Sequence record: PV893055.1
Origin: Escherichia phage vB_EcoBD_211
Length of the DNA stretch: 52,807 nucleotides
Direction: 5' to 3' (one strand)
The notes beneath the pieces were generated by a model. That model saw only the letters and a program-made list of their open reading frames with translations. It searched no databases and was not told where the DNA came from. This document shows positions 14,728-15,404 of the stretch, in pieces. Numbering within the stretch: position 1 is the first letter of the stretch; every line of letters begins with the position of its first letter. The position numbers and the translations under genes are program-made.

Positions 14728-14978
14728 TAGCGCTGATCTGAACGCACCTCTACGGAGGTGCATTCAATGGACATCCTTGCATCTCTCTTCTTATCAACAA
14801 TCAATTAAGCCTGGTGTGTTGAAACAGTGAGGGTGTCCAGTGAATGCAGTTCAATTCTGCTCGCTGACCGAGATTTGGTAAAAGCCGTGATGTGTGAGGT
14901 TCGATTCCTCCGACGCTGAAAAGGGTATTGGCTCGCTACCTTGGCCACAGGCGCCTGGTGTAGACGGCGGTCACAATT

Positions 14979-15065
14979 TTAGTTGTGGTGTTTTGGCGTA
15001 TCTTTTTGACACCCGTCGGGTGCAGGTTATCCACAATAACTCAGGTGCTAAGACACCACAACTAA
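14979..15065. repeat. inverted repeat with 12-bp arms and 63-bp spacer
   Basis: TTAGTTGTGGTG at 14979..14990 is the exact reverse complement of CACCACAACTAA at 15054..15065. Confidence 0.7.
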
Positions 15066-15074
15066 GGTTGTACT

Positions 15075-15148
15075 CGCTGTGTGCTTTTGCCACTATATTG
15101 GGGTAATAAGTGCAACGCTCTATACTTTCCGCGGTGAGAGCACACAGC
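15075..15148. repeat. inverted repeat with 10-12-bp arms and ~53-bp spacer
   Basis: GCTGTGTGCT at 15076..15085 is the reverse complement of AGCACACAGC at 15139..15148. Confidence 0.7.
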
Positions 15149-15404
15149 AAGTAACGCATATGTGATTGGCTACTCGATGACACCTCCTTTTCGTCTCGTC
15201 GCGGGGATTAAAATGGTAAATCTTTTGGCCAATCTCATATGCGCTGCCTGGTTGCATAGTTACGATGCCTTGTATCTCCTTACGCCACCCTGCCAAAAGG
15301 ACCAGTTAACGCTGGTCCTTTTTATTTTTACCAGAAGCGTAAAAAGTGCTTTACCACTAGAGAGTGATGTGGTATAATAAGTTATCTTTTAGAGGAGAGA
15401 TACA

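Follow-up and report, generated by a model that had tools for sequence, protein, structure and literature searches.

What is encoded between positions 14728 and 15404 of the genome of Escherichia phage vB_EcoBD_211 (sequence record PV893055.1)? The whole stretch that was analysed, 52,807 nucleotides, is referred to as the window; the gap under study occupies 677 bp of it, from the stop codon of a coding sequence for a KAE-repeat protein (ending at 14727) to the ATG at 15405. An earlier note on this DNA described a noncoding island with inverted repeats and a T-arm-like motif of transfer RNA (tRNA), and named a structured noncoding RNA, a degenerate tRNA and a replication origin as candidates. 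We believe, with a probability of about 0.65, that the gap is a functional plus-strand structured RNA locus containing a tRNA-like element (TLD); the data support neither a tRNA gene nor an origin of replication there. In our model the island is a chain of modules in the order hp0, hpA, TLD, hpB, hpC, hpD, tail and intrinsic terminator.

Folding and conservation of the gap

The genome belongs to Rosemountvirus, the BP63-like Salmonella/E. coli myophages of ~52 kb. Across the gap, 45 phage records are at least 94% identical to it; Loughboroughvirus (S144, ZCSE2, SE4) shows ~80-83% identity, and a third group (fHy-Eco03, KE25, SE1_KM; the fHy group below) matches in part only.

The earlier statement that the island lacks a convincing open reading frame (ORF) proved correct, as no ORF in the 677 bp is conserved. 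Small proteins are annotated here in several GenBank records (BP63_58; three ORFs in S144; gp58/gp59 in fHy-Eco03), and ORFs of 30-71 codons are indeed present on both strands. However, the window's 70- and 71-aa ORFs are not preserved even among the other Rosemountvirus genomes and contain stops or frame breaks in the other genera, the best cross-genus matches are short or stop-interrupted, and the position, frame and length of every ORF change even within the genus. The annotated ORFs are also inconsistent between records, and some of them overlap the terminator and promoter described below. We consider it extremely improbable that the gap is there to encode a small protein or proteins.

Both inverted repeats of the earlier note are exact: 14979-14990 (TTAGTTGTGGTG) is the reverse complement of 15054-15065 (CACCACAACTAA), and 15076-15085 (GCTGTGTGCT) of 15139-15148 (AGCACACAGC). 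The first is the core of a helix, I1, with 34-nt arms (14964-14997 and 15047-15080), and the second of a helix, I5, with 15-nt arms (15071-15085 and 15139-15153). They are not nested, as had been thought, but belong to two neighbouring long hairpins lying side by side; two more long hairpins, absent from the earlier list, occupy 14761-14846 and ~15154-15243. The structured modules are as follows.

14744..14761, plus strand: hp0, a 7-bp G+C-rich hairpin with a tetraloop, GCACCUC-UACG-GAGGUGC; compensatory changes, all lineages.
14761..14846, plus strand: hpA, a long hairpin with a basal stem of ~20 bp; paired in 20 genomes, all lineages, with many double changes.
14846..14973, plus strand: TLD, the tRNA-like element of ~128 nt; hand-curated comparison of 12 distinct instances, core pattern found in IMG/VR.
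14972..15072, plus strand: hpB, a three-way junction; 36 pairs, 96.3% paired.
15071..15153, plus strand: hpC, a long hairpin holding the second repeat; kept in Rosemountvirus and Loughboroughvirus, with mostly one-sided changes.
~15154..15243, plus strand: hpD, a long hairpin; Rosemountvirus only, with one-sided U-A/U.G changes, absent from Loughboroughvirus.

The predicted fold of the plus-strand RNA 14763-15330 has an energy of -209.9 kcal/mol against -164.6 +/- 6.4 in 100 dinucleotide shuffles (z -7.07), and the minus strand gives z -4.21. The paired arms are kept in related phages with compensatory changes in hpA, hpB, and the TLD helices T2, AS and a/a' described in the next section, so the covariation check proposed in the earlier note gave a positive answer. 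Alignment cells with G.U pairs far outnumber those with A.C pairs, 43:3 in hpB and 37:1 in the basal stem of hpA (the latter in 20 genomes, together with 270 Watson-Crick cells), which indicates that the pairing was selected on the plus strand as RNA. The small hairpin hp0 is present in every lineage with compensation, e.g., GCCCCUC/GAGGGGC in Erwinia phage SOI901.

The three-way junction hpB consists of a 25-bp helix P1, which holds the first repeat, a helix P2 (CACCC-GUC-GGGUG) and an invariant P3 (GGUUAU-CCACA-AUAACU). Double changes affect 16 of its 36 pairs, compared with 8.6 +/- 1.7 in shuffled alignments (the observed number was reached in 0 of 500) and 1-5 in controls with slid partners. 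Its covariance model scores 103.6 bits on the plus strand and 35.4 on the minus strand, with a single copy in the window. Carriers of hpB are Rosemountvirus, Loughboroughvirus, the fHy group, where it precedes the TLD instead of following it, and the distant contig L023.

In the comparison of the window with S144, identity is 82.8% over the gap (hp0-hpA 85%, TLD 83%, hpB 81%, hpC 76%) and 58-69% at the fourfold-degenerate sites of the three flanking genes; the RNA modules are thus under purifying selection. They are still recognisable in fHy-Eco03 and SE1_KM, although the 132-aa protein encoded after the gap is only 42-46% identical to its counterparts in fHy-Eco03, SE1_KM and SOI901. On the whole, the candidate structured noncoding RNA is well supported by the folding energy, covariation, strand-specific G.U pairs, conservation above that of synonymous sites, and a conserved intrinsic terminator.

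The pentamer CGCTG occurs in 14728-15330 six times on the plus strand (14731, 14862, 14914, 15075, 15242, 15310) and never on the minus strand; ~0.6 copies are expected, and six were reached in 0 of 5000 shuffles. The copies sit at helix boundaries.

The tRNA slot and the tRNA-like element

The published descriptions of Rosemountvirus and Loughboroughvirus uniformly state zero tRNA genes (PMC7432712, PMC9343928). The earlier note failed to build a full cloverleaf around the T-arm motif, and our searches agree with it: ARAGORN at default settings finds 0 tRNA or transfer-messenger RNA (tmRNA) genes in the window. No Rfam family reaches its gathering score there, and the Rfam tRNA model gives no match even at E<=10; the matches at this level are hairpins of the microRNA type at chance level (hpB, hpC) and a 15-nt piece of the tmRNA T-arm. 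At the 80% threshold, ARAGORN proposes only 14794-14869 and 14831-14919; both are poor pseudo-cloverleafs whose acceptor stems contain mismatches and whose anticodon stem has 3 bp or is irregular.

Relatives do have tRNA genes at this place. In the same gap, tRNA-Pro(UGG) followed by tRNA-Gln(UUG) is present in SOI901 and in five metagenomic contigs located via the flanking proteins (L010, L020, L021, L022 and L026), and tRNA-Gln only in a sixth, L023. A hairpin homologous to hpA precedes these tRNAs and an hpC-like one follows them; the gap ends with the same terminator and promoter. The gap is therefore the tRNA slot of this phage family. Other lineages have accumulated RNA modules in the slot as well: L022 contains ~185 extra, strongly folding bases between hpA and tRNA-Pro (662-845), and the 969-bp gap of L023 (3017-3985) combines hpA, hpB and tRNA-Gln with several more hairpins and a tRNA-like 3' half.

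Where the relatives have tRNA-Pro and tRNA-Gln, the window has the TLD, which consists of the following parts.

14846-14860, plus strand: T1, hairpin GCAG-UUCAAUU-CUGC, the other T-loop hairpin, fifty bases upstream of T2; followed by UCGC.
14865-14870, plus strand: closing strand a, UGACCG; pairs with a'.
14873-14881, plus strand: D-loop-like stretch AUUUGGUAA, 3' of strand a and 5' of T2.
14896..14910, plus strand: T2, hairpin GAGG-UUCGAUU-CCUC, the T-arm of the earlier note.
14914..14953, plus strand: AS (also hpE), an acceptor-like hairpin CGCUG...CAG(G)CG, with a 29-nt loop containing the conserved GGCUCGCUACC.
14954..14967, plus strand: D2, a short D-arm-like hairpin CC-UGGUGUAGAC-GG just 5' of a'; weakly supported.
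14968-14973, plus strand: closing strand a', CGGUCA; pairs with a.

The T-arm 11-mer GGTTCGATTCC is present as reported, one base further downstream (14898-14908, not 14897-14907). The closing helix a/a' has 4-6 bp in all 12 distinct instances, and a change of A to G in a is matched by U to C in a' in two separate lineages (L015, L084). Owing to this compensation, a mini-hairpin CUCG-CUGAC-CGAG after T1, which had been tried as the acceptor-like hairpin, was dropped in favour of the long-range UGACCG/CGGUCA helix. The stems of T2 vary and yet always pair (GAGG/CCUC, CUGGG/CCCAG, GCCUG/CAGGC, ACCGG/CCGGU, CCCG/CGGG, UUUUGG/CCAAAA and others): the 10 stems, with 8 distinct sequences, are 100% paired against 67% with shuffled partners (0 of 5000 shuffles). 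For AS, 8 stems with 6 distinct sequences are 100% paired against 52% (3 of 5000). The four tRNA-less lineages alone have four different T2 stems, all of them paired, and the same is true for AS. The T2 loops all keep U54, U55 and A58; the D2 loops contain GG (UUGGUA, UGGUGUAGAC) on stems of 2-3 bp, and the equivalent hairpins of the other carriers have loops UUGGUA, UGGCUA or UAGGUA. T1 and the core next to strand a are invariant and for this reason carry no covariation evidence. The alignment was curated by hand and checked against real sequences, as MAFFT misaligned T2 and AS between genera and RNAalifold on the MAFFT alignments was uninformative.

A search of IMG/VR with the T1 core and the next 12 nt (27 positions, with 24 fixed bases and one purine, GCAGTTCNANTCTGCTCGCTGRCCGAG) found 23 contigs, 18 of which, 5 to 124 kb long, share nothing else with this phage family. 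Their common plan is T1, UCGC, a (UGACCG), AG, the D-loop-like RUUNUGGUAA, a linker, T2, AS, a short hairpin of the UUGGUA type, and a' (CGGUCA). Four of the 12 instances are incomplete: the acceptor-like hairpin is absent in L071 and L082, and the D stem-loop in L067 and L068. Of the 15 foreign loci scanned, 7 have a same-strand tRNA gene (tRNA-Ser(UGA), tRNA-Thr or tRNA-Phe) whose 3' end lies 4-5 nt before the start of T1, and one further locus has a tRNA 3' of the TLD. Rfam recognises the adjoining tRNAs and nothing at the TLD of the foreign loci; the hpB covariance model has no copy in them. Among cultured phages the core was found in the Rosemountvirus/Loughboroughvirus/fHy family only (BLAST, 50,697 phage records).

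These data bear on the degenerate tRNA of the earlier note, of which the tRNA slot and the tRNA-type T-arm stand and the decay does not: the element of which the T-arm is part is conserved, covaries and is found in unrelated phages as well. It might be proposed that the tRNA-Pro and tRNA-Gln are no longer needed in the Salmonella/E. coli genera and that the gap contains their drifting, functionless remnants. The position is that of the tRNA pair of the relatives, T-arm motifs, sub-threshold pseudo-cloverleafs and marginal nhmmer matches are present, a viable deletion variant (Salmonella phage rivia) exists, and modules were gained and lost between genera. Neutral drift, however, disagrees with the 83% cross-genus identity against 58-69% at fourfold synonymous sites and with the compensatory changes in several helices; in addition, the TLD of foreign phages stands beside intact tRNAs and is therefore a unit of its own rather than the wreck of a neighbouring tRNA. 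We regard such decay as quite improbable. The descent of the T-arms themselves from the tRNA-Pro and tRNA-Gln of the relatives is plausible, judging by position and marginal similarity only.

The apical loop of hpA contains a conserved motif, GCCUGGUGUGUUG (14809-14821), resembling the tRNA D-loop. The corresponding consensus GCCUGGYKYGUUGGUGUA (in the contig L005 at ~2371-2390, and equivalents) is at the tip of hpA in the tRNA-less lineages and at the tip of the hairpin 3' of tRNA-Gln in the tRNA-bearing ones; D2 of the window (14952-14963) contains another, shorter copy. The stem GCUGUGUG/CACACAGC of hpC is of the same type as that of the hairpin after tRNA-Gln in the tRNA-bearing relatives.

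An attachment site attP carrying a tRNA 3' fragment was considered and rejected: in a BLAST search of 14840-14975 against 5,426 complete E. coli genomes, no chromosome matched, and the only sequences found were two 53-kb "plasmids", themselves this phage. The S144 annotation contains no integrase in positions 1-50,000 of 53,628 bp.

A natural deletion is found in Salmonella phage rivia (L059, MT074438). It spans ~14880-15024, about 130 bp, and joins the D-loop-like ATTTGGT to GGTTATCCACA of hpB P3, thus removing T2, AS, D2, a' and the 5' half of hpB.

hpB and the question of a replication origin

One further sequence feature lies in hpB.

15027..15035, plus strand: a perfect DnaA-box 9-mer, TTATCCACA, in P3; invariant wherever hpB exists.

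With this box it is tempting to propose an origin or single-strand initiation site, where DnaA binds hpB and the hairpins are extruded on unwound DNA near the helicase and polymerase genes. The gap is inside a replication and nucleotide-metabolism module, and 13631-16168 contains five DnaA-box-like sites with at most one mismatch, against ~0.6 expected; of the three exact DnaA boxes in the window, one is in the gap. Against this, the G.U to A.C ratios given above point to selection on one RNA strand and not to a symmetric cruciform. There are no iterons, only repeats of 9-13 nt in two or three copies. The cumulative GC skew passes 15 kb without a turn and reaches its extremes near 20-21 kb and 49-51 kb, the latter being the AT-richest region. 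The AT-rich stretch of the gap consists solely of the terminator tail and the region upstream of the promoter, and the gap lacks the make-up of a DnaA/iteron origin. Together with the box, hpB is absent from the L015 group and from the tRNA-bearing relatives, whose helicase and polymerase genes are the same, and rivia is viable without ~130 bp including half of hpB. The 18-mer around the box is at chance level in bacterial genomes: 26 matches versus ~17 expected among 185,579 genomes, and those inspected are in unrelated contexts except for one mislabelled Rosemountvirus contig. The origin suggested in the earlier note was thus not confirmed, and we judge it highly improbable; the DnaA box is probably incidental to the RNA motif of hpB.

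The lowest G+C content (0.38-0.42) and the minimum of the cumulative GC skew are found at ~49000-52807 and 1-3000 of the window; the equivalent region of S144 contains a 0.9-kb gap with divergent promoters. An origin or early control region would be better sought there than in the gap.

Predicted ends of the RNA

The following features would delimit the RNA.

14184..14212, plus strand: sigma-70-like promoter TTTACA-17-TATATT before the KAE-repeat gene; 10/12 match.
15264..15282, plus strand: 3' tail that includes an anti-Shine-Dalgarno stretch, CUCCUU, and is complementary to 15391-15411, where the next gene has its ribosome-binding region.
15295..15329, plus strand: intrinsic terminator, an 11-12-bp stem AAAAGGACCAG / CUGGUCCUUUU followed by UAUUUUU; conserved in all lineages.
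15350..15407, plus strand: promoter TTTACC-17-TATAAT (15350-15378), Shine-Dalgarno sequence GAGGAG (from 15392) and ATG (15405); boundary of the island, outside the RNA.

The site at 14184-14212 is annotated as a promoter also in phage BP63. No promoter-like site was found within 14728-15300; 14184-14212 is the sole one upstream of the island, and the transcript entering the island presumably starts there. The hairpin hp0 has no U tract and hence is not a terminator. In the relatives the tRNA genes are downstream of hp0 with no intervening promoter, so that hp0 and hpA must be transcribed through there, rightward; by analogy, we infer the same for the window. The terminator, a G+C hairpin with a U tract, shows a compensatory swap of CAG/CUG to CUG/CAG in its stem (15295-15322) and is the likely 3' end of the RNA. 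The strong downstream promoter with its spacer is conserved in all lineages and near-identical even in SOI901.

The duplex of the tail with the ribosome-binding site is stronger than in shuffles in 8 of 14 lineages (shuffle fraction at most 0.033; z down to -4.8) and borderline in fHy (0.063); the partner sequences vary by lineage. This complementarity is suggestive only; it may point to masking of translation on transcripts that read through, or to a small RNA derived from the 3' end. In the leader of the next gene (15385-15404), an 8-bp hairpin UAUCUUUU-AGAG-GAGAGAUA could cover the Shine-Dalgarno sequence and form a possible second layer of translational control.

The tip of hpC (15081-15113) is a degenerate direct copy of the downstream promoter (15346-15382), GTGCTTTTGCCACTA...GGGGTAATAAGT versus GTGCTTTACCACTAG...GTGGTATAATAAGT, with a spacer too short to work; it suggests local duplication as an origin of modules.

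A rival reading is that the island is an RNA cassette acting in cis alone: a folded 3' untranslated region shielding the KAE mRNA from 3' exonucleases and Rho, with hairpins for RNase III/E inherited from a tRNA operon, a tail masking the next ribosome-binding site, and T-loop hairpins left over as structures with no role in trans. The hairpins hp0, hpA and the hpC-like one flank real tRNAs in the relatives, as processing or stabilising stems would; long near-perfect stems of 20-25 bp, which the island has, resemble RNase III substrates; the tail complementarity exceeds shuffles in most lineages; and the terminator-promoter arrangement is conserved. What a cassette of this kind leaves unexplained is the near-invariant TLD core in unrelated phages with different neighbour genes, the covariation of T2 and AS in foreign phages, and the invariant P3 and junction of hpB; the tail effect is also weak in the window (z -0.9). 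As an account of the whole island it seems to us improbable. For the plain hairpins hp0, hpA, hpC and hpD it is a serious alternative, which does not extend to the TLD.

The gene order around the gap is conserved: helicase, a small protein, KAE-repeat protein, gap, the 132-aa protein, MazG-like NTP pyrophosphohydrolase and ThyA. Pfam and PHROGs yield no function for the three small proteins flanking the gap. In fHy-Eco03 (L003), gp60 and gp57, the homologues of 14260-14727 and 15405-15803 of the window, are annotated as virion-associated by LC-MS/MS (liquid chromatography-tandem mass spectrometry).

Several database records similar to the gap are filed under unexpected names. The 52.8- and 53.5-kb "plasmids" NZ_JBVNBN010000003.1 and NZ_CP067310.1 of two complete E. 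coli assemblies and PP583539.1, filed as "Listeria phage 220426122051", are 97-98% identical to it, and a "Bacillota MAG" (metagenome-assembled genome) contig, L044, contains a near-unchanged hpB region. These filings are probably due to contamination, mislabelling or a carrier state.

Discussion

We presume the following mechanism, consistent with the data above. The island would encode an untranslated plus-strand RNA of ~570 nt, whose transcript would start at the promoter of the KAE-repeat gene, read through hp0 and stop at the terminator 15295-15329. The RNA would be a row of independently folding modules, hp0, hpA, TLD, hpB, hpC and hpD, and after them the tail with its complementarity to the ribosome-binding site. 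The TLD takes the place of the tRNA-Pro and tRNA-Gln in the slot of the Salmonella/E. coli genera. The TLD and perhaps other hairpins may be excised by the host nucleases that mature tRNA operons; the excised TLD would then be a stable tRNA mimic, occupying or tethering a host or phage factor that recognises the tRNA elbow. When a transcript reads through the terminator, the tail may also reduce translation of the next gene. The decoy or tether role of the TLD specifically is much less certain than the RNA locus itself, and we would sooner expect it to be wrong than right.

Several points weigh against a functional RNA locus with a tRNA-like element. Promoter use, read-through of hp0, processing and stability are all deduced from the sequence, and no Rfam family matches. 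The hand curation of the TLD alignment can favour the proposed pairing. With a D2 stem of just 2-3 bp and an unvarying T1, some parts of the tRNA-like model have little or no support from covariation; in the T2 loop, position 56 can be C, U or G, which is unlike a true tRNA elbow. The profile of the tRNA-Pro/tRNA-Gln pair of the relatives matches the tRNA-less gaps marginally (nhmmer E 0.04-0.13). The complementarity of the tail is weak in the window itself, as mentioned above. Phage rivia is a viable isolate, and any function of the island is thus accessory; modules are also gained and lost between genera, hpD being confined to Rosemountvirus and hpB missing from two lineages.

If the functional RNA locus is real, its function would be directly testable, since these Salmonella and E. 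coli phages are easily grown and rivia is a natural deletion mutant. It would show that a phage family kept its tRNA slot while swapping the tRNAs for a tRNA mimic. Rosemountvirus and Loughboroughvirus are under development for the biocontrol of Salmonella and E. coli; in their current records the gap is either blank or filled with mutually inconsistent "hypothetical proteins", and the annotation of a structured RNA would correct both. We found no literature description of an RNA in this gap or of a double T-loop element, although the catalogue of candidate viral structured RNAs in PMC10690425 could contain it.

Comparison with known RNAs

In design the TLD resembles YrlA (bacterial Y RNA-like A), the tRNA-like effector domain of RNAs bound by Ro60/Rsr, which is an L-shaped tRNA mimic by crystallography and is modified by TruB and DusA (PMC4201824; bioRxiv 10.1101/312249). 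YrlA and the TLD have a common order: closing stem, variable region, T stem-loop of the UUCGA type, closed acceptor-like hairpin, D-type loop with GG, and closing stem. The curated parse of the 12 instances, four of them incomplete, follows this order, and covariation supports the closing stem, T2 and AS. By this analogy, the TLD would have the shape of a tRNA whose anticodon end is open and whose acceptor end is closed, as YrlA does. YrlA-type RNAs occur also in some phages, and YrlA is present in Salmonella, a host of this phage.

The differences are considerable. There is no sequence similarity to YrlA and no Rfam match to any model of the Y RNA type; the TLD has an extra 5' T-loop hairpin (T1), a second D-loop-like stretch and a D stem of 2-3 bp, the linkers differ, and there is no UA between AS and D. 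The Ro60-binding motif GNCGAA(N0-1)G (PMC4201824) was not seen 5' of or within the closing stem of the TLD (GCUCGCUGACCGAGAUU). A Ro60/TROVE gene was found neither among the neighbours of the gap nor in the InterPro-based annotation of S144 at positions 1-50,000 of 53.6 kb. Membership of the TLD in YrlA or the bacterial Y RNAs is not supported.

In its placement the TLD is similar to the species 1 and 2 RNAs of phage T4 (rnaC, rnaD), small stable RNAs encoded within a phage tRNA cluster, immediately 3' of a tRNA gene: rnaD is 1 nt after tRNA-Arg, and rnaC, 6 nt after rnaD, ends with the T-arm CCGGG-UUCGAAU-CCCGG. No sequence similarity between them and the TLD is detectable, and the T1 core is absent from T4. 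A faint echo of the TLD pattern AAUGCAG...UCGCUGACCG...GGUAA is seen in rnaD (L087 1554-1672, minus strand) as AAUGAG...CCGG-GUCGCUA-CCGG-UAAG; this echo may be due to chance, and the short resemblance UCGCUACCGGUAA is tentative.

The tRNA-like domain of tmRNA has the same T-arm loop as T2 and a D-loop analogue lacking a D stem, and the tmRNA T-arm is the best partial Rfam match of T2 (E 2.6). Unlike tmRNA, the TLD has no acceptor stem with a free CCA end, no reading frame for a tag and no pseudoknots; a relaxed ARAGORN search did not detect a tmRNA either.

GOLLD and ROOL, the large ornate RNAs of phages and prophages, have lengths of several hundred nucleotides, contain many helices and are often near tRNA genes. 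The island is similar to them in size and context. Their Rfam models give no match in the window and are absent from the matches at E<=10 in 14600-15500. In contrast to one conserved fold, the island seems to be made of separable modules shuffled between genera, and the hosts are Enterobacteria.

The recurrence of the TLD beside tRNA genes in unrelated uncultured phages and its absence from Rfam 15 suggest that it may be an undescribed class of RNA. A bolder proposal, which we put forward tentatively and do not favour at present, is that the TLD is a new widespread class of phage tRNA mimics with a double T-loop and a YrlA-like permutation, which is produced from tRNA operons and binds a conserved tRNA-recognising factor to the benefit of the phage, the whole island then being the enterobacterial counterpart of GOLLD and ROOL built of exchangeable modules. 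A component of RNA repair or quality control of the Rsr/RtcB type, an enzyme of tRNA processing or modification, and a tRNA-directed defence protein are named as examples only of a factor that the TLD might bind. No molecular role is known for the RNAs most like it, YrlA and species 1 and 2 of T4, in the T4 case for decades; a tractable example in phages of E. coli and Salmonella could help to find it.

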